The notes: generated by a model not told the origin, from the sequence alone. 64,000 bases of DNA from an archaeon (GCA_043797705.1 JAZDPJ010000002.1:20833-84832); one strand, 5' to 3'; numbered from the stretch's first letter, positions 20,792 to 58,020 are shown. Made by a program: numbers and translations.

Positions 20792-21325
20792 TTATTCCCC
20801 TTTAATCCAACGCAACTCATACCCGCCAGTAGCCCTAGAGATATAACTGCCACCTGGTAATTCTAAACAATAAGCAATCTCTTCTTCTCCAAATTTTCTA
20901 AGAATACCTTCAGCTTCTTTTTGAGAAAAATCTAGTTGTATCATTGTAGGGTCCCATGCCCTTTTATGTCTTCCAAGATCTTCAGGAAGCAAACAATCTC
21001 TTAATTTAACTACTTCCTTGCCTTTAGCAGACCAACGAAGAGTCTCATACCAGCAGGCAGTAAACATCTCAGTTTCAAGCCTAACACGAGTCTTCTCCAA
21101 ACCTTCCGGACTAGGAGAACTGAAACTATCGCGGATATCATCCATCAGGATCTTCATGATGCCCTTGTCAGGCTCTACTGAAGAGATTTCCTCTTCAATC
21201 TCCTTAAGTGCACTCTCGTCAATAATATCTACCTGAGGTTCCATCGGCTTCCCTTCCAAAGCAGAGCGAACATAAGGCTCTATCCTTCTACACAAGCTAT
21301 CAAGCTGATCACTGAAATCTTCCAT
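20792..21325 (-). CDS. Hypothetical acidic protein
   Basis: 177-aa ORF with no motif recognised. Confidence 0.35.
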   Translation of the reverse strand: MEDFSDQLDSLCRRIEPYVRSALEGKPMEPQVDIIDESALKEIEEEISSVEPDKGIMKILMDDIRDSFSSPSPEGLEKTRVRLETEMFTACWYETLRWSAKGKEVVKLRDCLLPEDLGRHKRAWDPTMIQLDFSQKEAEGILRKFGEEEIAYCLELPGGSYISRATGGYELRWIKGE

Positions 21326-21374
21326 TAAAAAAGGGATTACTTCGAGGTTGCTTAAAAAGATTGTGGTAATTTAG

Positions 21375-21640
21375 TTTCCGACAAAAGAAACGCATTTAAA
21401 TGATTGGTGCTTTCTATATGTATTCATACTCGATAATGCGGGATTTCACAAAACAGATGTTGTAAAAAGCCTAATAGAAGAACAAAACAAATGGATTGCT
21501 CTTGAATACATCCCGCCATACTCACCAGAACTAAATCCGACTTAAACGAACTGGAAAGTCACAAAAAATGCTGTAACAAAAAATCACAGCATTTCAAAAC
21601 AATCGAATCAATGCAAGAGACACTGGAATCATTTTGGAAA
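21375..21640 (+). mobile_element. IS630/Tc1-mariner-family transposase gene remnant (C-terminal DDE fragment, interrupted by a stop)
   Basis: Translation ...FILDNAGFHKTDVVKSL...WIALEYIPPYSPELNPT*...VTKNAV reproduces the IS630 DDE tail (LDNAxxH ... LPPYSPELNPIE) but is truncated and interrupted by a stop. Confidence 0.55.
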
Positions 21641-21699
21641 GAACATATTTTTATGCAAGACTTTATGCATTATTCATGTCGTTAACTAGTTTAATGGTA

Positions 21700-22299
21700 T
21701 CAGCAGCTTGTGGAGAGTGTGAGGCCGTCCGGTATTTCTGCTTTACTTTTGAAGCACAGCAGGTTCTCTGGTTTTATCTTCTTCGCATATTTGCAGTCGG
21801 GCTTGTAGTAGACTTTGGAGTTTTTGCTTGCTACGTATGCGCATCCTTCTTTCGGATCTTCGCAGGACCATACTCCGAGGTTCTGGCTCTTGGCTATTGC
21901 TTCTGCTTCTTTCAGTTGGTCGTATCTTTTGGTGTCGTCCTTGTATTTGTCGTACACTTTTGCGTAGCCTTCTTTGACTATCTCCTCGTTTATCATCATG
22001 TCGTCTAGGTAGAGGTATCTGAGGTATCTTCCGTACGCTCCTTTGTCTGACTTGTCTCTTTCTGTGTATACTTCCTTGTTTAGTATGAGCTCTTTCAGTC
22101 GGTCTTTGGCTTCTTGGTAGTAGCATTCTCCTGTCTCAGGCGTGTTTATTCCGCTGAATCTTATTCTTTGTCCGTTGTCCAGGTCTAGTGTGTCTCCGTC
22201 TACTACTTTGGTTACTATGTATGGTCCTTCTTTTGTTATGTTACCTGTTGTGCATCCGCTGATTAAAACTATCAACAATAGGAATAGTAGTTTGTTCAT
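21700..22299 (-). CDS. Thermonuclease (staphylococcal-nuclease-like, SNc) lipoprotein
   Basis: Lipobox LISGCTTG, then VVDGDTLDLDNGQRIRFSGINTPE...YGRYLRYLYLD, typical of the SNase fold. Confidence 0.8.
   Translation of the reverse strand: MNKLLFLLLIVLISGCTTGNITKEGPYIVTKVVDGDTLDLDNGQRIRFSGINTPETGECYYQEAKDRLKELILNKEVYTERDKSDKGAYGRYLRYLYLDDMMINEEIVKEGYAKVYDKYKDDTKRYDQLKEAEAIAKSQNLGVWSCEDPKEGCAYVASKNSKVYYKPDCKYAKKIKPENLLCFKSKAEIPDGLTLSTSC
22131..22299. repeat. Direct repeat copy A (5' end of the nuclease gene); partner at 27075-27249
   Basis: About 60 bp are nearly identical (gtttattccgctgaatcttattctttg.ccgttgtccaggtct..tgtgtctccgtcta), followed by ~100 bp that have diverged but still align. Confidence 0.7.
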
Positions 22300-22405
22300 G
22301 TCTTTTGTTTTAGAAATTTGTTCTATATAACTTTAACTTAGTTTTTTTCGGAAGGTTTGCGGTATAGTGAACAATAATCTAAGAAAAATAGTTGGCACAT
22401 AATTC

Positions 22406-23239
22406 TTATCTTACTTTTATTAATTCATTAAGGTTTTCATCAATTTTTTCACAGTCTTTATTTGTTAGTTGGAAATCTGTTGCTTCGTAGTTTTCTCTTA
22501 GGTGATTTACTGATTTAAAGATTGTTACTATATTTTTCTTTGATATTAACCAATTAAGTGTTATTTGTGCTTCTGTTTTTCCGTATTTTTTAGATAGTTT
22601 TGCTAGTATTTTTATTTTTTCTGTGTTTATTTTTCCTCGTCCGAAAGGTTTATGGGCTATAATAAGTATATCGTTGTTTTGGCAGTATTCAATTGTTGAG
22701 AATCTTACACGTTCTGACCAGGGGGAGTAATTTATCTCATTAGCTACTATTTTATTTTTTGTATATTTTTGTGCTTCTTTTATTTGTTCAATATTGAAGT
22801 TACTTACACCTATATTTTTTACTAGTCCTTGTTCTATTAAGAAGTCCATTGATGCCATTGTTTCTTTAAGGGGTATTTCTGGATTGTAATGGTGTATGAG
22901 GTAAAGATCAATATATCCTATCTTTAATCTTTTAAGACTATTTTTGGCTGAGTTAATTACATCTTCGTATTTTAGATTTTTCCCATGTACTTTGGTTGTT
23001 ATTATTAGTTTTGTTCTATCAAATTCTTTGATAGCTTTTCCTAAGAGTTCTTCTGAGTGTCCTCTGCCATATCTTTCTGCTGTATCTATATGTCTAAATC
23101 CTACTTTGATGGCTTTTTTAATTGCACTTATATTTTCTTTATCATGAGCATAATCTGGCTCTCTATTGCCACCCAATCCGTAAGTTCCTATCCCTATTGC
23201 TGGTAGTTTAAAGCCATTTTGGAGTTCTTTGGTTCTCAT
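22406..23239 (-). CDS. Aldo-keto reductase family oxidoreductase
   Basis: LPAIGIGTYGLGG...IDTAERYGRG...IGVSNF are AKR signature blocks. Confidence 0.85.
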   Translation of the reverse strand: MRTKELQNGFKLPAIGIGTYGLGGNREPDYAHDKENISAIKKAIKVGFRHIDTAERYGRGHSEELLGKAIKEFDRTKLIITTKVHGKNLKYEDVINSAKNSLKRLKIGYIDLYLIHHYNPEIPLKETMASMDFLIEQGLVKNIGVSNFNIEQIKEAQKYTKNKIVANEINYSPWSERVRFSTIEYCQNNDILIIAHKPFGRGKINTEKIKILAKLSKKYGKTEAQITLNWLISKKNIVTIFKSVNHLRENYEATDFQLTNKDCEKIDENLNELIKVR

Positions 23240-23371
23240 AGTTTTTAGTTTGTTTGTAATTATATAACTTTTTTGGAGTTGTAAGCGCTTTTTTATCGAA
23301 AAGTTTATAAGCGAGAACTATCGCAAAGTAGTAACAGTTTCTAGCTTTTGAAGCTAGAAGGGAGATAAAAA

Positions 23372-23563
23372 ATGAAACAAATATACCCAAAAAATTCAGA
23401 TAGAAGTTTAGAACCAGTAATTTCCAAGGAAGAACTAAAAGAAGGTCTTAGTAAAAAGGTCAGCAAACTAATAGAGAACGCTACTGAAAAAGTAGGTCTA
23501 GAGTCCAATAGCAAAAACAGACCATATGATTTGAGTTCAGCAGGACCTTATCCGGACTACTAA
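23372..23563 (+). CDS. Small peptide ORF immediately upstream of the rSAM/SPASM gene (candidate precursor peptide)
   Basis: 63 aa with no Cys, ending ...DLSSAGPYPDY. Its stop is 1 nt before the rSAM start. Confidence 0.35.
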   Translation: MKQIYPKNSDRSLEPVISKEELKEGLSKKVSKLIENATEKVGLESNSKNRPYDLSSAGPYPDY

Positions 23564-23564
23564 A

Positions 23565-24614
23565 TTGAATCCGAGAATTGTTTCTGTAATAGCAAAGGTT
23601 ACTGAGAGGTGTAATCTGAACTGCAAGTATTGCCATCTCGATAAAATTAAGTGTAAGGATATGTCAAAAGAAACCCTAAAATCCATACTTGATAATTTTT
23701 CAAGCAAAGATGGTGAATATGTACATTTCAATTGGAGTGGGGGTGAGCCATTGCTCCAAGGAGATCTTTTTTTTGAAGAGGTAAATAGGCTTGTTACTGA
23801 AAAAGGAGCGAATGTTGATTATTCTATCCAAACCAATGGTGTGCTTTTAACAGATGAGAAATTAGAGAAATTAAGAAAGCTAAACTTCAATGTCGGAGTC
23901 AGTTTTGATGGCACCGTAGGTCTGCATGTAAAACAAAGAAGGGTTCCAGAAAAGGTTGCAAAGAGAATTTATGAAACTCTTAAACAAAGGGGCAGGGATA
24001 TGAATAATATAATCTCGGTTTTAACCAGACATGGTCTTGGGATGGAAAAAGAGATATACGATAACCTCAAAGGGTTAGCAAAAAATGCCTCTGTGAATGT
24101 ATATATCCCTACAGGTAATGGCCGTAAGAATTCTTCTGAATTATTGGCTTCTCCAAAAGAAATGGGTAATATGCTTATAAAATTTTATGATTTATGGAGT
24201 CAGGATGAAAGTAATTTTATGTTAAGTCCTTTTACTCGTATTCTCCAGTCTCTAGTTAATCCTAAAGGGAACCATATATGCGAGTATTCTGCAGAGGCAT
24301 GCAATCAAGTTGTAGGGTTGGATCCTGAAGGGAATGTATATTTTTGTGCAAGGGCAACATCTGATCCTAATTTTTATATGGGTAGTTTAAAGACTCAGAG
24401 CTTGGATGAGATATTATCTAATCCCATACGTGAAAAGGTTTATGAGAGGCGTGAGGAGTTGAGAAAAGAATGTAACTGCGAATATTTTGATATTTGTAAT
24501 GGCGGTTGTCCTCAGGAGGCTGCTGTTAATGGAGATTTTTTTAGTAAGACCTACTATTGCGAGTCTAGAAAAATGCTCTTTGATTATATGGTGGGGTCTC
24601 TCAAAAATGAGTAG
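23565..24614 (+). CDS. Radical SAM enzyme with C-terminal SPASM domain (peptide/protein-modifying maturase family)
   Basis: CNLNCKYC matches CxxxCxxC at the N-terminus. The C-terminal Cys-rich SPASM-like region reads C..C...C...CNCEYFDICNGGC...YC. Confidence 0.8.
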   Translation: MNPRIVSVIAKVTERCNLNCKYCHLDKIKCKDMSKETLKSILDNFSSKDGEYVHFNWSGGEPLLQGDLFFEEVNRLVTEKGANVDYSIQTNGVLLTDEKLEKLRKLNFNVGVSFDGTVGLHVKQRRVPEKVAKRIYETLKQRGRDMNNIISVLTRHGLGMEKEIYDNLKGLAKNASVNVYIPTGNGRKNSSELLASPKEMGNMLIKFYDLWSQDESNFMLSPFTRILQSLVNPKGNHICEYSAEACNQVVGLDPEGNVYFCARATSDPNFYMGSLKTQSLDEILSNPIREKVYERREELRKECNCEYFDICNGGCPQEAAVNGDFFSKTYYCESRKMLFDYMVGSLKNE

Positions 24615-25455
24615 AATAGATGATTTAATTGATAGAGAGTCTCTTGAATTTGTTGCAGCTTCAAAAATTTCTTATAATGACTGTTATGTTTTAATGCAAT
24701 CTGGAGAACCAAGGTATTTTTTGAAAAAAACTGGGGAAGCTGAAAAGGAAGCTACTGTATACGAAGTTTTCAAGAAAGCTAAGCTTGGAGAAACTTTAAA
24801 ACTTGTTGATCACGGTACTGATTTTATCTTAACAGAATACTATCCAAACCTTACGGAATACAGCACTGTTTTTGGTACAATCTATGAAATAGCAAGATTT
24901 CATAACGCTGGAATAGAAAATGCAAATTATATAAAAGCAAAGTTGAAAGATTCAAAATTTTTAAATCTTGATAGAACAAGGGCTATTGCCAGAATCAATA
25001 AGCATCCAGAATTGGTTAGAAAATTTTATTCCAACTCAGAGTCTTTAATTAAGTGGATTGAAAAAAATCAAGACCTACCTAAAAATCAAACAAAAATCCT
25101 AGTTCACGGAGATTTTAATGAACATAACCTTGTGAGATCTTCAGATAAAGATTTTATCTTTTTAGATTTTGAATCAGCTATGTATGATTATCCTTCTTGG
25201 GATATTTGCAGACCAATGCTGAATACAGATAGTTTTGAAACTGCAGAAGATCTAGCAAAAGAATATTTAAAGGGCAGAGGCATAAAATCAAACTTAACAG
25301 AAGATTTAGTTAAAATAAAAGTTGATTGTGTACTTAAGTATGTAAGCCTCGGACTTACAGTACTACTGAGAGATACACCTCAGATAAGGGCAAGGAGAGA
25401 TTGGTACCTATCAAAAACAAGTAACTTTATTGGGAGGATAATAGATGAGATTTGA
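24607..25455 (+). CDS. Aminoglycoside/choline-kinase-like phosphotransferase (APH family)
   Basis: Brenner motif LVHGDFNEHNL plus a DFE Mg site. Start taken at the Met overlapping the rSAM stop by 8 nt. Confidence 0.65.
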   Translation: MSRIDDLIDRESLEFVAASKISYNDCYVLMQSGEPRYFLKKTGEAEKEATVYEVFKKAKLGETLKLVDHGTDFILTEYYPNLTEYSTVFGTIYEIARFHNAGIENANYIKAKLKDSKFLNLDRTRAIARINKHPELVRKFYSNSESLIKWIEKNQDLPKNQTKILVHGDFNEHNLVRSSDKDFIFLDFESAMYDYPSWDICRPMLNTDSFETAEDLAKEYLKGRGIKSNLTEDLVKIKVDCVLKYVSLGLTVLLRDTPQIRARRDWYLSKTSNFIGRIIDEI

Positions 25456-26176
25456 AATGTCTAAAATTAAGAATTTTGTATTTTTCTTGTATATCGCTAA
25501 TAAGGACCATAAGGGTTTGAAAGCATGGGAAGAAGCTAGACATATACTTGGAGATTTTTATCTAGATAATTGTAATGTTAAGGTGCTTCCTTATTTGATG
25601 ACTCTTTCAGATGAAGTTCTTGAGTCTGTTTTAGTAGATGACCCTGCTTTGAAGGAGCATTATGATCGCTCTTTTGCTAGGTTTAGTGAGTATTTTGATA
25701 AGAACGTTAGGCTTCTTGAAAAACGTAAGGGGGAACTTAAGAAAGCGTGGTCTAATTTTGATAAGAGCAAACTTGAGGTTATGTACGATTTTTATGGTTC
25801 TGAGAAGAAAGAGCCTAAAGTGGTTTACTTGTTTGCTGGAAACTTTCATGATCAAGGTCTTGGTTACCATTACCATGGACACGCTTTTTTGTTTTGTTCC
25901 AATCTTGGAAAAGAGGGTGTGACTCGGGATTTAAGGATACTTATGCACGAATTCTGCCATCTTATAGAACATAATTTAGGTGTGGAAGATAAAAATCTCA
26001 AGCAGAATATAGCTTTCTGTTTTGCGCCTTACGGGTATTTGTTTGAGGATTTGGAGAAGATACAGAATAAGGAATTATACTTGGTTGTGAAAAAAGCTAT
26101 TCAAAATAGGAAGACTTTCAAAGATATTGAATCAGAGATTGTAAAGATTTACTCTAAGAAGGATGGAACTTATTAA
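25445..26176 (+). CDS. HExxH-motif protein (putative zinc metallopeptidase)
   Basis: RILMHEFCHLIEH. Overlaps the kinase gene by 11 nt. Confidence 0.45.
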   Translation: MRFEMSKIKNFVFFLYIANKDHKGLKAWEEARHILGDFYLDNCNVKVLPYLMTLSDEVLESVLVDDPALKEHYDRSFARFSEYFDKNVRLLEKRKGELKKAWSNFDKSKLEVMYDFYGSEKKEPKVVYLFAGNFHDQGLGYHYHGHAFLFCSNLGKEGVTRDLRILMHEFCHLIEHNLGVEDKNLKQNIAFCFAPYGYLFEDLEKIQNKELYLVVKKAIQNRKTFKDIESEIVKIYSKKDGTY

Positions 26177-26248
26177 TTTAAAAAAAATTTATCTAAATTG
26201 GGTAGAAATTGCATTAGAATCCGGAAAAGATGCTGCTAACCATCAGGT

Positions 26249-26995
26249 ATGAAAATGGAACTAAAGGTAATGACCAATAATATCTGGAGATATTATGAAT
26301 GGGAAAACCGAAAAGAGAAACTAATTAAATTTTTTAAAGAACAAGCTGCTGATGTAGTTTTCTTACAAGAAGTAGTTTTTGATGAAAGAAAGAAGTGGGA
26401 AAATCAAGTTCATGAAATTAACGAAGAATTGAATTACAAATATTTTGCTTTTGGAAAGTTAACTCAATTAACTAATTGGCATAAAGAACCTATTGATTGG
26501 ACTATGTACCTTGGTCTCGGGATACTTTCAAGGCACCCAATAAAACATTCAGGAGTTATTCTCTTACCAATACATAAAGAGCATGGCGATAAAAAGCAAC
26601 TAGGATTTCATCATGTAGTTATTGAGACTCCTGAAGGAGATGTTGATTTAATCAATGTTCACTTTTCTAATAATAACATATCCGCTAAGTTACATTTGAA
26701 AGAAACTTTGAAATGGTGTAAAGAAAAAGGGATTAAACCAATAATTGCAGGAGATTTTAACATAAAAATTGTTAAAGATTTGTTAGGTGAAGCTCAAGAA
26801 GATTATCATATTTCATACTCAATTAAGCATTACAAATCATTCTATCCAACAAAATTTTCTCATGACTCAGTACCAATAACTCTAGACTATATAATTGCAC
26901 ATAAAGGTAAGTTTGAAATGGCCGAAGTGGAATGTATAGATACTGATGTTTCAGACCATAAACCTGTAAAAGCAAATATTGAAATAAAGGAATAA
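26249..26995 (+). CDS. Endonuclease/exonuclease/phosphatase (EEP) family protein
   Basis: Conserved N-terminal Asn/Glu region (MTNNIW...FLQE), internal GDFN, and C-terminal SDHKPV motif. Confidence 0.7.
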   Translation: MKMELKVMTNNIWRYYEWENRKEKLIKFFKEQAADVVFLQEVVFDERKKWENQVHEINEELNYKYFAFGKLTQLTNWHKEPIDWTMYLGLGILSRHPIKHSGVILLPIHKEHGDKKQLGFHHVVIETPEGDVDLINVHFSNNNISAKLHLKETLKWCKEKGIKPIIAGDFNIKIVKDLLGEAQEDYHISYSIKHYKSFYPTKFSHDSVPITLDYIIAHKGKFEMAEVECIDTDVSDHKPVKANIEIKE

Positions 26996-27074
26996 CTCTT
27001 TCCAAAATCTTATAGATAAAACCTGAGGTCTTGGGTTTTAATGGTTACAAAAATCGAGTAGTTCTTTACTTAAC

Positions 27075-27248
27075 TTAGACTATGTTGTTGTTTATTCCGC
27101 TGAATCTTATTCTTTGCCCGTTGTCCAGGTCTGCTGTGTCTCCGTCTATCACATAAGTTACGAGGTATGGCCCTTCCTTAGTGACATTACCTGTTGTGCA
27201 TCCGCTGAGGGATAGTACAAGCAATATTAGTGCTATTATTTTTTTCAT
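27075..27248 (-). pseudogene. Truncated duplicate of the thermonuclease 5' end (signal peptide plus first ~35 mature residues, then stop)
   Basis: Encodes MKKIIALILLVLSLSGCTTGNVTKEGPYLVTYVIDGDTADLDNGQRIRFSGINNNIV*. This parallels 21700-22299 up to ...RIRFSGIN, where the homology ends. Confidence 0.6.
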
Positions 27249-27334
27249 AGAAGCTGTTCTAGAATTTGTTTTTTATAAGTTGTACTTAGAAATTTTCGTA
27301 AGTTTTATAAAATACTGGTTTTTACTTTCGAGGT

Positions 27335-27532
27335 ATGACTGATTTAGAGTATAGGATATGCCCGAAGGATCATGCGGTTTGGTATTCTAGTGAGAATTAC
27401 GCGCAGGACTTTTCTGATGGGAATGTTGATGTTATGACTTTGCAGCCTATGTATGAGCCAGGTTTGTATTGCTCTCAGTGCGGCAGGGCTTATGGCATTA
27501 GCAAGCTGAAGGATCCTGAGATTAAAAAATAA
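27335..27532 (+). CDS. Hypothetical small zinc-ribbon-like protein
   Basis: 65 aa with C..H...CSQC. Confidence 0.3.
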   Translation: MTDLEYRICPKDHAVWYSSENYAQDFSDGNVDVMTLQPMYEPGLYCSQCGRAYGISKLKDPEIKK

Positions 27533-33020: not shown

Positions 33021-33911
33021 TTATCTTAGTTTTTCGAGTAGTTTAAGAGATTCTTTATCAAATTTGGAGAATGCAAACCATTTCTTGCCCAAATCTTTCA
33101 ATGAGGCTCCGAAATGGTATGCCTCTTTATCATCAACTATTAGAAATCTGTCGTGGGAATTTTTGAATTCCTTAATGACAATTGGAGAATACTGCGAGTT
33201 ATATTTTTTTAAATCAAGGGATAATTGCTTTGAAATTTCTTTGGTAAAAATTGTAACAGTAACATTCTTCTTTCTTTTGTTAAAAAGAATCAAAATAGAG
33301 TCATCTACATAGTTATCCACTAAAACAATTGATTTCTCGGCGTTTCTTATGATATCTGAAACAAAGTTATAGGCGTCAAACACTTGTCCGTCAAAAAATA
33401 TGCCTTTCTTAGGTTTAATATCTCTGCTTTCAAGTGCATCAAAAAGCTGATCAAATCGTTTGTTAGTCTTAATTTCATAGTTTAACTGCTTTTTCTCAAC
33501 ATAGTATAGCTTTTGAAATATCTGAGCATTTGATGCAATGAACCTCCTCATAGCAACGAATGCATCTATTATTTTTATACTTATTTCAACAGCAGTATCA
33601 CTTTTTAGAGTGCCTGAAAGCATAGCAACACCTTGTTCTGTAAAGGCTAAAGGCCTTTTTCTCAAGCCCATTTTGATGGAATTGGATATCACAAATTGTG
33701 ATTTCCAATTTTCAAATTCTTCTTTGTCTAATTTAAACATAAACTTGTCTGGGAAACGATTAATATTTCTCCTAACTGCTTGATTTAAAACTCTTGTTTC
33801 TACTTGATAAAGGGCGGCTAAATCACTATCTATCATTACCTGTAGTCCCCGGATAGTGTAAATCTTATTTTTTATCTGGTTTTCATTTAGGACAGTTAAT
33901 TCATTAGTCAT
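33021..33911 (-). CDS. ORF6N-domain (KilA-N/Bro-N-like) protein with a degenerate PLD/HKD-like C-terminal region
   Basis: N-terminal IRGLQVMIDSDLAALYQVETRVLNQAVRRNINRF... matches the ORF6N domain. C-terminal HDRFLIVDD...GASL resembles an HxK(x)4D...GSxN motif. Confidence 0.55.
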   Translation of the reverse strand: MTNELTVLNENQIKNKIYTIRGLQVMIDSDLAALYQVETRVLNQAVRRNINRFPDKFMFKLDKEEFENWKSQFVISNSIKMGLRKRPLAFTEQGVAMLSGTLKSDTAVEISIKIIDAFVAMRRFIASNAQIFQKLYYVEKKQLNYEIKTNKRFDQLFDALESRDIKPKKGIFFDGQVFDAYNFVSDIIRNAEKSIVLVDNYVDDSILILFNKRKKNVTVTIFTKEISKQLSLDLKKYNSQYSPIVIKEFKNSHDRFLIVDDKEAYHFGASLKDLGKKWFAFSKFDKESLKLLEKLR

Positions 33912-47928: not shown

Positions 47929-47970
47929 GGTATTACAAGTATTTTTTGCACTTTTTACTTATAAGCTTTT

Positions 47971-48405
47971 CTAAAGTCCGCAGTTTTTGCATTTGGCTGG
48001 GTGTAGTATTTTGGTTTTTTTGCTTATCAAGTAGAGTATCAGTAGGCCTAGTGATCCTCCTAGTACTGTGACTACTATATCGAAGAATCCGTCCCAGAAG
48101 AATATGTCTTGGAGGTATGGAGGGTTTTCTACGACTAGCTCTTCTAGTGTTTCGAGTACTTCCCAGATTAGTGCTCCTGCGAGTGTGAATGTCATTGTGA
48201 GTCCTTGTCTTTTGGGTATGTGTTCTATGTTTAGTATCCAGTAGATTCCTATTCCGAGTGCTATTCCTGCGAATAGGTGGCTTGGCACATCCACTAGTGG
48301 CAGTTCTTTGTATAGGTTGTAGATTCTTATCGTTAGCTCTACGAGTAGGAATACTATGACTGATATTAGTGATATTACGAATAGTTTGTCGCGGTTCCAT
48401 GCCAT
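47971..48405 (-). CDS. Hypothetical membrane protein (4 TM) with C-terminal CxxC
   Basis: Chosen over the overlapping low-complexity frame 47933..48400. Confidence 0.4.
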   Translation of the reverse strand: MAWNRDKLFVISLISVIVFLLVELTIRIYNLYKELPLVDVPSHLFAGIALGIGIYWILNIEHIPKRQGLTMTFTLAGALIWEVLETLEELVVENPPYLQDIFFWDGFFDIVVTVLGGSLGLLILYLISKKTKILHPAKCKNCGL

Positions 48406-49220: not shown

Positions 49221-50120
49221 TTGATGAAAATAAGTAATGGACGTTTTAAAAAAGGAAGTATCCCTTGGAATAAGAACTCCATTAGGAAAGTATGTTTAAA
49301 TTGTGGAAAAGAATTTTTCATTTCTAAAAGTAGGAATCTAGAAGGGAGGGGTAAATTTGATTCAATAAAATGTAAGAAGGGATATAAGTATAAGCTTGCT
49401 AAAGAATTTTTCATTAATGGAGATATGGCAGAACTTATAGGGATTATTATTGGGGATGGTTGCATCAGTAGGGTACGCAATCGGAATGATTATAGGATTC
49501 AAATTTCAGGTAATAAAATTGAAGATAAGTTCTATATGGAAGATTATTTACCAAGCTTGGTATTTAGATGTTTAAAAATAAAGTCTAAACCCTTTTTGGC
49601 AAAGAACGGTGCGTTGATATTGCAATTTCAATCTGAACCATTTAGAATCTTTTTACATTCGTTAGGTATATGTTCACCAAAAGCTAAGACTGTTTGCATA
49701 CCGGAGATTATCAAATCTAATAGATGTCATTTAAAGAGGTGTATAAGGGGTATAGCTGATACGGATTTTACTTTGATATTTACTAAACGGAAAAAAGCGG
49801 GTTTGAATTATTACCCAAGGATTTGTGCACAATTTGCTTCAGAGTCATTAGTTAAGGATTTGGAGACAAGCTTACATATAATGGGATTTACTTTAAATGT
49901 TAAGTATAATTATTTAAGAAATGATAAACGCGGTTTTAAGTACACAACAAATTTTATAAACTTAGACGGCCCAATTAATTTAAATAGATGGATAGATTTA
50001 ATTGGCTTTTCAAATATGAGAATAAAGACAAGGTATCAAGTATGGCAAGAATACAAACATCTAAAACCAAAATCGACTATCTCAGAAAGAATAGCTCTAT
50101 TAGAGGGCGCAAGGGGGTGA
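49221..50120 (+). CDS. Free-standing LAGLIDADG-family homing endonuclease with N-terminal CxxC zinc-finger-like region
   Basis: Two LAGLIDADG-type motifs, LIGIIIGDGCI and CIRGIADTDFTL, about 100 aa apart. Codon style is A-rich, unlike its T/G-rich plus-strand neighbours. Confidence 0.6.
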   Translation: MMKISNGRFKKGSIPWNKNSIRKVCLNCGKEFFISKSRNLEGRGKFDSIKCKKGYKYKLAKEFFINGDMAELIGIIIGDGCISRVRNRNDYRIQISGNKIEDKFYMEDYLPSLVFRCLKIKSKPFLAKNGALILQFQSEPFRIFLHSLGICSPKAKTVCIPEIIKSNRCHLKRCIRGIADTDFTLIFTKRKKAGLNYYPRICAQFASESLVKDLETSLHIMGFTLNVKYNYLRNDKRGFKYTTNFINLDGPINLNRWIDLIGFSNMRIKTRYQVWQEYKHLKPKSTISERIALLEGARG

Positions 50121-56700: not shown

Positions 56701-57054
56701 AATATGAAGGACATAAATCTTTTGACTCTTGAGGGTTTTTGGAAAAATGGGAAGGATATTGTTGGTTATGAGAATTTTCCGTCAATTATTGGTGAGGTGT
56801 ATTGTCTGGATAATTTAGTGACAAATTCGGCTGAGGAACTATTTGAGAAACGTATTGAGGCAAAGAGGCTTGATCTTGTTGCTGTGGATGATGCGAGGGT
56901 GTTGTTCAGTGAGGTTGATGCTCTTAGTGCGATATTAAGAAAAAATGCTGAGAAGGTTATAACCGATCGTGTAGGCTGTATAGAGAGATATATTCGTGAT
57001 GGTAATGCTGATGAGTTTATGAGTTTGGAGGGTATTTTTAAAAAGTATAATTAA
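53758..57054 (+). CDS. Large ATP-dependent protease-like protein: two AAA+ modules plus a C-terminal Lon (S16) protease domain
   Basis: Walker A FLGPTGSGKT (module 1). Module 2 has ILAGPPGSGKTF, Walker B VYFVDEGD and sensor ALTTNNPERL. The C-terminal Lon domain has the Ser motif GGPSAGMA and a Lys (VIIGGADNK) at the spacing of the E. coli Lon S679/K722 dyad. Starts 3 nt after the SPFH gene. Confidence 0.7.
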   Translation: MPIHKTQEPITVILEKDRKLLLDELADSWSMDHKKFILQSLRKYAPSVIKPTKTNLDSMRDLLFGKDKKVDKREILHLANPEIFKNPSERYKITGEKDPTKALHRIFDEEITSNDRTYLIHLLDKETDDVFIPPELIEEFAIGHRRHHQNLLLEERAPKAPFYLFLGPTGSGKTKTVNRAIERALFNQELEIKYKVDEDLEGIIERHPIMARIDLAAVAPEAAERIGKEKRRKKLKFFSTIPILKDFYKEETAEVLKEEKKEFGMSIDKDQINPNNVQTMWYGETGNKMMTSFGSKGAISIRVLEEAHALLRVHESRSAQVQEDTLVSTFNIIMDEIEKGERNCMVVALTRRGEEFHEDIFRRFQEKGRIIDMSDYWKNPETIEELIKIEVKQQDVEMPGDVERKDLANKVLQIFEYRDLDLTPAYVRKLLASIIEEKKQLLNEYLDDGVLVRRAFVNVARNLYPEMFKKTYNKMVRNVEWGDYVGDIKEEFQRSANQRLIHNLSTEKGVILAGPPGSGKTFLARAYLSRNKDIADITLSIEDLQDDRDPIDGPVRKLAESIDIAKMCAPSVYFVDEGDTIAMERQGNSIQDRIPNKLLNAISGENEIKGVFFALTTNNPERLAEAAKRSGRLRVMTITGKLTERDIYKLLGNYLKGEVVSPEISEQRVYSIARKICSTPADYSAFFETIVNFKNEEREIIKFASKTEERGLDDFIISNYKALIGIVESLGFSSGFVNDARRDISFLINNKDVLMVKVREAVEKNDYPITIAHLDRAHNDRMQAPRLKGKISLDDYLESQLSSEPQVGMVIGAGASDTSGLLVPIRSSIIYDGDNLNEKTVVTGAVPVNAPQAAELNAAVEMVKQSAKEALTLVLNYLDSLFLEKDVKRVIGTYLKNRHFHHQFLTAQYMSGGPSAGMALAINTLSSILELPVRHDFGITGAPWSGGKTKKDTGSAVIIGGADNKSQIVLSYLNRMYIPVQNMKDINLLTLEGFWKNGKDIVGYENFPSIIGEVYCLDNLVTNSAEELFEKRIEAKRLDLVAVDDARVLFSEVDALSAILRKNAEKVITDRVGCIERYIRDGNADEFMSLEGIFKKYN

Positions 57055-57057
57055 AAC

Positions 57058-57411
57058 TTATTTCTTTTTTTTCTTGTATATGTAGATGAATGCTATTGCC
57101 ATTACTGTTATGTTTATTAGCATGAAGTATCCGTTTCCCCAGCTCGTTCCGGGGAATTTCCATTCTGATATTGGCCAGAGGAATGGTGTTGGGAGGAATT
57201 CTCTTGTGTGGGTGAAGAGATCCATTGTTATTGCTACTGGCCAGGCTAGCATGTACCAATGTATTTTTTTTAGGTATAGGCTGATAAGTATTATTGCTAT
57301 TGCTGCGAGTATTAGGCTGTGGCTTACATTGTATAGTGTGAACACCCATTCCGGCATATTCGTTAGGTGTGGCTCTCCGAATTCTCGTATGAATAGCAGG
57401 TTGTAGAACAT
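57058..57411 (-). CDS. Small membrane protein (start uncertain; in-frame upstream extension lacks a start codon)
   Basis: Three TM segments. The upstream in-frame sequence WIKKPWKAVAFGLLPDTASWAVY also looks protein-like. Confidence 0.3.
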   Translation of the reverse strand: MFYNLLFIREFGEPHLTNMPEWVFTLYNVSHSLILAAIAIILISLYLKKIHWYMLAWPVAITMDLFTHTREFLPTPFLWPISEWKFPGTSWGNGYFMLINITVMAIAFIYIYKKKKK

Positions 57412-57558
57412 ATAGACTGCCCAGGATGCTGTGTCTGGTAGAAGCCCGAAAGCTACTGCTTTCCATGGTTTTTTTATCCAGTGAAAAAGTATATAGCTTC
57501 AGATTCCGTGTGAAAAATAGTCCATATCCTATCAGGAGGTCTTTTTTTGTATAAATAC

Positions 57559-58020
57559 TTAGTGGATTGTGTCTGCTACTGCTGCGCTCATTGATGCTGG
57601 GAATGTTACTAGTGCTACTCTTTTTAATGCGAGCAGGCTGTCTGTTGCCCATGGTGTTTTTTGTATGAGTGTCAAAATAATCGCTACTACTATGAATGAC
57701 AGCACATAGGTTAGTGCTGTTCTTTTGAAGTATCCTTCCCATGTTTCTTTGATTTTTTCTTTGTGGTAGTTGTAATATACGAATATTGATATGAATAAGA
57801 TGGATAATGCTACGAATCCGAGGACATTTGCGAGGGGTAGTGTTTCTGCTAGCTTCCAGGACTCTTCTGTGAACCCAACAGGTATTGCTAGTATTGATGC
57901 TCCGATTATTACTTGTAAGACATCTTTGAGGTGGAACTCTGTCCTGAGCGGGGACAATAGTTTTACCAGTGCTTTGCCGGTTTGGTCTACTATGATTACC
58001 TCTCTATGTTTTTTCAGCAT
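57559..58020 (-). CDS. Hypothetical membrane protein (4 TM)
   Basis: 153-aa hydrophobic ORF. Confidence 0.35.
   Translation of the reverse strand: MLKKHREVIIVDQTGKALVKLLSPLRTEFHLKDVLQVIIGASILAIPVGFTEESWKLAETLPLANVLGFVALSILFISIFVYYNYHKEKIKETWEGYFKRTALTYVLSFIVVAIILTLIQKTPWATDSLLALKRVALVTFPASMSAAVADTIH

Follow-up and report, generated by a model that had tools for sequence, protein, structure and literature searches.

A compositionally foreign block between two copies of a nuclease gene 5' end in a DPANN archaeon carries a conserved four-gene cassette, probably for peptide maturation

In a 64,000-nucleotide stretch of archaeal DNA (JAZDPJ010000002.1:20833-84832 of assembly GCA_043797705.1, hereafter the window), a block of approximately 4.9 kb is enclosed by an intact gene for a staphylococcal-type nuclease (SNase) and a direct, truncated copy of the 5' end of this gene. 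The host of this DNA, which is also present in GCA_043811045.1, is a Woesearchaeota-like DPANN archaeon, and the closest relatives of the SNase and of a phosphoesterase encoded in the block carry the labels Woesearchaeota, Nanoarchaeota or Nanoarchaeia. Central to the block is a cassette of four genes, encoding a short putative precursor peptide, a radical S-adenosylmethionine (rSAM) enzyme with a SPASM domain, an APH-fold kinase and a protein with an HExxH motif. The features, in window positions, are as follows.

21700-22299, minus strand: intact SNase gene, encoding a lipoprotein staphylococcal-type nuclease (199 aa; PF00565, E=3e-24)
22143-22361, minus strand: left direct-repeat copy, consisting of SNase codons 1-52 and about 62 nt of promoter region (repeat families D1, with a spacing of 4946, and D4, the upstream part)
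22406-23239, minus strand: aldo/keto reductase (AKR; 277 aa; PF00248, E=3e-61)
23372-23563, plus strand: putative precursor peptide gene (63 aa; leader with a LEPVIS...LKEGL motif; C-terminal core NRPYDLSSAGPYPDY)
23565-24614, plus strand: rSAM/SPASM enzyme (349 aa; PF04055 and PF13186; no N-terminal extension)
24607-25455, plus strand: APH-fold kinase (282 aa; PF01636, E=8e-10), translationally coupled to the rSAM gene
25445-26176, plus strand: HExxH protein (243 aa; novel zincin-like family)
26204-26248, plus strand: relic of the 3' end of a nucleotidyltransferase (NTase)-like gene (45 nt, the last ~15 codons, ..EIALESGKDAANHQV and a stop codon)
26249-26995, plus strand: endonuclease/exonuclease/phosphatase (EEP)-fold phosphoesterase (248 aa; PF03372)
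27075-27248, minus strand: truncated SNase open reading frame (ORF; 57 aa, lipobox intact)
27089-27310, minus strand: right direct-repeat copy, consisting of the truncated SNase 5' end (from the ORF at 27075-27248) and its promoter region

All ORFs between 22300 and 27075 could be assigned to the six genes for the AKR, precursor, rSAM enzyme, kinase, HExxH protein and EEP; the intergenic gaps in the block measure at most 132 bp, and neither an integrase, transposase or excisionase nor a remnant of one was found there. The rSAM and kinase genes overlap by 8 nt and the kinase and HExxH genes by 11 nt, which indicates co-translation. An earlier reading of this DNA (the original prediction) had proposed the same nuclease, truncated duplicate and six intervening genes with the same boundaries and overlaps, as well as the lack of an integrase, and all of this was borne out.

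The gene set was searched for elsewhere, as the original prediction had suggested, and the cassette was retrieved in five further contexts. The six distinct cassettes (the window, L004, L036-38, L039, L147 and L148-150) each have a different genomic surrounding, and every neighbourhood inspected contains the rSAM/SPASM enzyme, the APH kinase, the HExxH protein and a short ORF. An exhaustive profile search among 1.8 billion representatives returned 25 relatives of the HExxH protein and a word-indexed search only one, and the cassette amounts to approximately 25 clusters at 50% identity, largely on DPANN-type archaeal contigs. No copy was detected on viral contigs or plasmids: the plasmid blastn search was empty and the viral contigs contained only generic rSAM/SPASM proteins of at most 27% full-length identity. 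Neither an integrase nor an SNase lies beside any of the five other cassettes. The conserved unit is thus smaller than the pathway set originally proposed: precursor, rSAM enzyme, kinase and HExxH protein are conserved in the six cassettes, but the AKR is found in none of L004, L036, L039, L147 and L148, and the EEP usually resides elsewhere.

Beside all six cassettes a homologous short ORF of 54 to 65 aa is present. In a six-way alignment of these precursors, R50, P51, L54, S55, Y60 and D62 are invariant, and the peptides share a leader motif LE.(I/V)LS and a C-terminal core RP(Y)[DE]LS(S)-x2-3-Y-x-D (for example NRPYDLSSAGPYPDY, LRPYELSSAPSYGDIT, QRPYELSSAPSYTDIS and QRPYELSSSPDYIDGGYTD). 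The core contains an aromatic-X-X motif, Y60-x-D62, in all six precursors and a second one, Y-[DE]-L, in five.

The cysteines of the rSAM enzyme, namely the CX3CX2C motif (C16, C20 and C23) together with C239, C246, C261, C305, C311, C315 and C332, are the same in each of seven sequences. Its best NCBIfam matches are DynA (NF041298; 173.7 bits versus a cut-off of 450) and anSME (TIGR03942; 171.4 versus 349.45), and the families of three-residue cyclophane-forming enzymes (3-CyFE) all score below their cut-offs as well (GrrM 108 bits versus 310, YhhB 107 versus 445, FxsB 69 versus 370 and XyeB 65 versus 450). The rSAM enzymes of L036, L039 and P0005 likewise remain under the NCBIfam cut-offs. 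Among PDB entries, the best matches are anSME 4k37 (1.6e-19) and subsequently the rSAM domain of ChlB, 9gm3 (1.8e-14).

In the kinase, the Lys that binds ATP, the HGDxxxxN loop and the motif DFE are retained, and no variation occurs among the six cassettes at K40, E48, H167-G-D169, N174 and D187-F-E189. A kinase paired with a rSAM/SPASM enzyme was not found described in the literature searched. A sister cluster (L030-L035, e.g. L030 4567-8324) contains a rSAM/SPASM enzyme 30-35% identical to that of the window, together with a 33-41-aa peptide ending in ..M.YSEAYGGE, a SAM methyltransferase, two His_Phos_1 phosphatases and an APH kinase, so that kinase-linked chemistry recurs around this rSAM lineage. 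This sister cluster adjoins restriction-modification genes in three contigs, and also TIR-domain genes in L032. A role as defence system was considered for the cassette and dropped, the PADLOC match being only to the generic rSAM core of pVip.

In the HExxH protein, H168, E169 and H172 are invariant and D162 nearly so; a downstream Glu present in most relatives is replaced by Gln in the window protein. Sequence matches were found neither in Pfam nor in NCBIfam for the window protein and its L039 relative, nor in NCBIfam for a third relative, P0055. PDB sequences likewise yielded no match to the window protein; a profile search of them missed 8s5f even at E<=10, and as such gave no indication of membership of the alpha-ketoglutarate (aKG)-HExxH family (IPR026337; ChlH, PflC, PesO). 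From its sequence, the protein may be either a leader peptidase or a hydroxylase or tailoring enzyme of the aKG-HExxH type, between which the fold does not discriminate. HExxH partners of cyclophane-forming rSAM enzymes can be Fe/aKG beta-hydroxylases and not proteases, with Asp, His, Gln or Pro as documented targets, Asp being hydroxylated inside rSAM-made cyclophanes (PMC12636437, PMC13060819). In L036, a separate small gluzincin-like gene lies 3' of the HExxH gene. P0055 (L147 6001-7128) has its HExxH domain fused to an N-terminal domain of approximately 125 aa with a C-X5-R-S motif (CGLGLNRS); this motif resembles the loop of Cys-phosphatases, and an assignment to the low-molecular-weight protein tyrosine phosphatases was not retained, since neither Pfam nor NCBIfam supports it.

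The EEP belongs to a family of more than 150 homologues with 46-79% identity, of which those with a named source are mostly DPANN, and which in other contexts usually follow an NTase-like gene. It lies downstream of the cassette in two (the window and L039) of the five loci with a visible downstream gene, and the window EEP is closer to copies not linked to a cassette (75-79% identity) than to the cassette-linked copy of L039 (57%). Its structural model (predicted local distance difference test score 94.4) has a generic EEP fold; searched by fold, it matched TDP2, LINE-1 endonuclease and sphingomyelinase alike at ~1e-13, an unspecific outcome. Directly upstream of the EEP gene lies the relic at 26204-26248, which is the best window match in a tblastn search with the 479-aa NTase-like protein of L064 (15 of 25 residues identical, among which 13 of the last 15). 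In L064 (8559-9998) and L065 (1-1149) the NTase-like gene is located directly 5' of the EEP gene, and blastn homology of the window to these two loci starts at 26204-26206 and continues through the EEP gene at 75-77%. Because this relic lies between the HExxH and EEP genes, their adjacency is a secondary recombination joint; when the EEP module and the cassette came together there, one gene lost most of its length. The linkage of EEP and cassette in two loci may be functional or a coincidence. Membership of the EEP in the peptide pathway is doubtful, and a role as pathway phosphatase is weakened by its wide family distribution, its usual NTase-like partner and the relic. The two-gene unit of an NTase-like protein (~480 aa) and an EEP recurs in DPANN contigs (L064 8559-10738, L065 1-1898), and in L064 it is surrounded by HEPN/NTase, PIN and RHH toxin-antitoxin genes.

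Third codon positions across the window show a very strong strand bias, with skews of approximately 0.5-0.7 regardless of gene orientation. For genes left of ~21.3 kb, the plus-strand skew between G and C at third positions (GC3 skew) is about -0.6 and that between A and T (AT3 skew) about +0.6; right of 21.7 kb both signs are reversed. The sign flips between genes, within 374 bp (21326-21699) that adjoin the SNase gene on its left, so that the block immediately adjoins the point of sign change, and the cumulative GC-skew minimum lies at ~22 kb. Because the skew changes sign there, this intergenic stretch is a candidate replication origin, the bias being unusually strong for an archaeon; convincing origin-recognition-type repeats were not found in 21250-21750. 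NCBI contig JBDRNM010000043.1 stops at window position 21228, near the skew switch, which might reflect an assembly join. The strand bias is a sensitive gauge of the residence time of a gene in this genome. The right half contains genes devoid of the genome strand skew, namely one for an ORF6N/Rha-type protein (33021-33911), which is of a mobile-element type, and three with no Pfam match (49221-50120, 47933-48400 and 57038-57742); these are probably further recent acquisitions or inversions. Left of the skew switch, a homologue of ribosomal protein L11 (19102-19782; 226 aa in total) has a long Lys/Glu/Ala-rich C-terminal tail.

Against this background, no part of the window deviates more in third-position composition than the block between the SNase copies. 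When third positions are pooled over all six genes enclosed by the repeats, with skews expressed on the leading strand, they have a GC content (GC3) of 0.258, a GC3 skew of 0.28 and a TA3 skew of 0.18, and all three values lie below the minima of 59 similar-sized blocks elsewhere in the window (0.332, 0.426 and 0.335, respectively), which upholds the compositional argument of the original prediction. The GC3 of the kinase, EEP, AKR and short precursor ORF is below that of all 62 background genes; the AKR has the lowest value in the window (0.198), yet its skew is host-like. The ORF6N gene, being likewise devoid of skew, serves as an internal control that weak skew does mark imports. Conversely, a host-like composition is found in the SNase gene, in its fragment and in the gene that follows (27335-27532). 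The cargo between the SNase copies is therefore likely of foreign origin, and the block is mosaic, with at least three modules: the AKR, the four-gene cassette, and the EEP with the relic of its usual upstream neighbour.

The near-identical core of the two direct SNase 5' copies, as originally described, was found again, although the homology reaches further upstream than had been supposed. Codons 1-52 of the SNase gene (22144-22299) and codons 1-53 of the 57-aa ORF (27090-27248) are identical at 127 of 156 nt (81%), with a single in-frame 3-nt indel. Similarity extends ~62 nt 5' of both ATGs at ~70% identity, including a TATA-like element, rises to 74% in codons 1-33 and to 54 of 57 nt in codons 34-52, and ends abruptly past codon 52, after the GIN codons. 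The mismatches are thus unevenly distributed (26/99 for codons 1-33 versus 3/57 for codons 34-52; Fisher p=0.001), the highest identity being reached where the copy is truncated. The repeated unit of ~220 bp, comprising promoter and 5' coding region, is in direct orientation with a spacing of 4946-4948 bp, and the right-copy junction recurs on three other independent contigs (L001, L002 and L151). The codon differences comprise nine synonymous changes, twelve mostly conservative replacements and the one in-frame indel; because of these conservative replacements and this indel, the copies look like homologues that diverged while both were functional, and not like a recent in-place duplication. 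Both copies carry the strong third-position skew of the host (GC3 0.515 and TA3 skew 0.88 for the intact SNase gene), as opposed to the cargo. Comparing the direction of the mismatches with the host bias, as an indication of which copy might be foreign, yielded 12 versus 7, or 9 versus 2 at third positions (p=0.065), which is not significant. The GC3 of the SNase gene differs between its 5' and 3' parts (p=0.035), and since the truncated fragment shows the same difference, this probably reflects the signal-peptide region. Past the SNase domain, residues ~146-199 (21700-21860) form a Cys-containing C-terminal extension (..CAYVASKNSKVYYKPDCKYAKKIKPENLLCF..).

To trace how the block arrived, related loci were inspected. 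A scan of GTDB species genomes for the SNase yielded 25 loci from related DPANN genomes; no neighbouring gene of the window recurs at any of them, none has a second SNase within 10 kb, and the closest SNase relative is 67% identical. In JGI metagenomes, scanned for ThiI, the best relative reached 61% identity and likewise had no neighbours in common with the window. When exact matches to the HExxH protein (25445-26176) and to the small gene at 27335-27532 were looked up, only contigs with the same arrangement were retrieved. The peak of identity at the break would fit an att core, a Campbell-type single crossover, or a gene-conversion tract between old paralogues that ends with the homology. 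In a Campbell-type event, a circularised DNA carrying a homologous SNase 5' segment would have inserted by a single homologous crossover within codons 34-52, which alone are similar enough for recombination, independently of an integrase. We slightly favour such an insertion, while in overall fit it and a truncated paralogue do equally well.

In the latter explanation, the locus would have held two old tandem SNase paralogues, and the incoming cassette and EEP module would have replaced the 3' two-thirds of the second one, the near-identical patch being the product of gene conversion. This is a possible, though not the preferred, course of events. The nine synonymous and twelve mostly conservative changes with an in-frame indel suggest a long divergence under selection, and the host-like skew of both copies and the homology of their promoter regions point the same way, as does the relic at 26204-26248, which shows that insertions with deletion occurred in the block. 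Such an origin is opposed by the lack of a second nearby SNase in all 25 related loci and by the position of the identity peak exactly at the break, which needs the additional assumption of gene conversion; moreover, the AKR, which has the lowest GC3 in the window, lies between the copies.

The reading that we prefer, to which we assign a probability of roughly 0.6, is that of a horizontally acquired mosaic in which the cassette is a maturation pathway for a RiPP, a peptide that is made by the ribosome and modified after translation. A peptide pathway is suggested by the conserved short ORF, the retained rSAM/SPASM cysteines, the nearest families, which are peptide and protein maturases, and the invariant kinase residues, and from these sequence features the cassette most likely makes a modified peptide. 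As such it is a variant of the rSAM/SPASM RiPP clusters and not a new kind of system. The gene set matches no named family above its curated threshold and is undescribed in the literature searched, in agreement with the suggestion in the original prediction of a peptide-modification set with no described counterpart. In the proposed pathway, the precursor would be made and its leader would bind the enzymes. The three-cluster rSAM/SPASM enzyme would abstract a hydrogen atom from the conserved C-terminal core, most likely resulting in a three-residue Tyr-X-Asp cross-link like those of dynobactin or the triceptides, or alternatively in an anSME-like oxidation of the conserved Ser. The APH-fold kinase might O-phosphorylate a hydroxyl group, be it of the conserved Ser or Tyr or one installed by another enzyme, and the HExxH metalloenzyme would either remove the leader or act as a hydroxylase of the aKG-HExxH type.

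Several observations weigh against this interpretation. The tetranucleotide distance of the block is only moderately raised (z=2.2), and another 4.7-kb segment lies just as far from the rest. Because the AKR and the HExxH gene are near-normal in skew, the modules may differ in age, and constraints of another kind might account for part of the low GC3. The native look of both SNase copies is expected neither from a foreign element nor from a Campbell-type insertion, except where the DNA came from a close relative whose replication architecture was the same; an element-borne copy sharing the history of the cargo is argued against by the host-like skew of both copies. A syntenic relative or one with an empty site was lacking from the collections searched. 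As to the chemistry, the rSAM enzyme scores far below the cut-off of every named family, so that its reaction can be proposed only by analogy, and the first Tyr of the core is a Thr in L147.

It is rather unlikely, but deserves consideration, that the cassette is not of the RiPP type and either matures a protein, by an anSME-like conversion of Ser to formylglycine, or makes a peptide-derived cofactor, in which a cross-link between Tyr and an acidic residue would be followed by proteolytic release, as for pyrroloquinoline quinone (PQQ) or mycofactocin, with the kinase acting on a small molecule. The anSME match of the rSAM enzyme is as good as that of DynA, and four of the six precursors have S-x-[A/P] in their core, which resembles the sulfatase motif S-x-P/A-x-R; however, the Arg of this motif is missing from the cores. 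Similarly, the window and L004 cores end in Tyr, as MftA does, but this C-terminal Tyr is not conserved. An antibiotic-type product is less obvious for small DPANN genomes. Nevertheless, a dedicated precursor with a conserved leader lies beside every cassette, and the cassette lacks the oxidase, dehydrogenase or carrier protein typical of the PQQ and mycofactocin pathways.

A RiPP pathway, as preferred here, invites comparison with four described types of system. Because of the invariant Y-x-D, the similarity of the rSAM enzyme to ChlB and the gluzincin-like gene of L036, a logic like that of ChlB/ChlH, a triceptide system in which rSAM and aKG-HExxH are fused (Morishita et al. 2024, cited by PMC12636437 and PMC12912966), is attractive. 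The window differs from it in that the HExxH protein is encoded by a separate gene, has no sequence match to 8s5f and resembles Wss1 and M1 peptidases to at least the same degree; moreover, the window set adds an obligatory APH kinase and its host is a DPANN archaeon. With DynA, which aligns end to end (profile positions 4-354 of 356), the window enzyme shares a compact rSAM and SPASM architecture with no N-terminal extension. The known dynobactin and darobactin systems (DynA/DarE) are bacterial, from Gammaproteobacteria, and their products contain aromatic-to-C-beta cross-links over three residues; their core is unrelated to that of the window cassette, and they are not known to have a kinase or HExxH partner. 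The resemblance to anSME consists of the conserved Ser in the window core and of 4k37 as best PDB match, whereas the window substrate is not a sulfatase but a dedicated small peptide lacking the Arg of the sulfatase motif. Kinases are used in RiPP biosynthesis by class III-V lanthipeptides, by thioamitides (an APH-type kinase with a lyase) and in phosphorylated lasso peptides such as paeninodin. These clusters likewise encode the kinase and have a conserved Ser in the core, but the window has no cyclase, lasso cyclase or B protein; no lyase (HopA1 or LanL-type) was found in any cassette, and no Cys in any of the six cores.

As to its mode of arrival, the block resembles the genomic islands that integrate at gene ends in that direct repeats of a gene end enclose foreign cargo and the target gene is intact, yet it lacks an integrase, its repeats measure ~220 bp with 81% identity over the coding part and are not a short identical core, both repeats look native, and its cargo is a mosaic with an internal gene relic. 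A classical integrative element, in which an integrase would have joined an attP beside an element-borne SNase 5' segment to an attB in the SNase gene and later have been lost, is improbable: the direct repeats, the 57-nt stretch with three mismatches abutting the truncation point as an att core would, the foreign cargo and the restored intact gene speak for it, but every ORF of the block is accounted for with no trace of an integrase or excisionase, the supposedly element-borne SNase part is host-like in skew, unlike the cargo, no integrase or SNase accompanies the other five cassettes, and viral contigs and plasmids yielded no copy. The original prediction that an element had carried in its own copy of the SNase 5' end is accordingly rated as less likely; the two copies differ as once-functional homologues would.

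DPANN archaea, whose genomes are tiny, are regarded as symbionts. A characterised RiPP product from this group was not found in the literature searched, and for archaea as a whole few RiPPs have been characterised, with only two haloarchaeal lanthipeptides preceding the work reported in PMC12144867. Tentatively, the cassette might represent a new class of ribosomal peptide, i.e. a Tyr-X-Asp cross-linked, O-phosphorylated peptide or peptide-derived cofactor, the genes of which move as an integrase-free module; if so, it would combine rSAM cross-linking with kinase tailoring, which has not yet been described for any RiPP. The exceptional replication-strand skew of this genome can be used as a built-in clock to spot recently acquired genes. 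For enzymology, the locus offers as leads a kinase alongside a DynA/anSME-like rSAM enzyme and a new zincin-like HExxH family, which may comprise peptidases or oxygenases, and the cassette, with its clearly defined precursor motif, would give direct experimental access to archaeal peptide chemistry.

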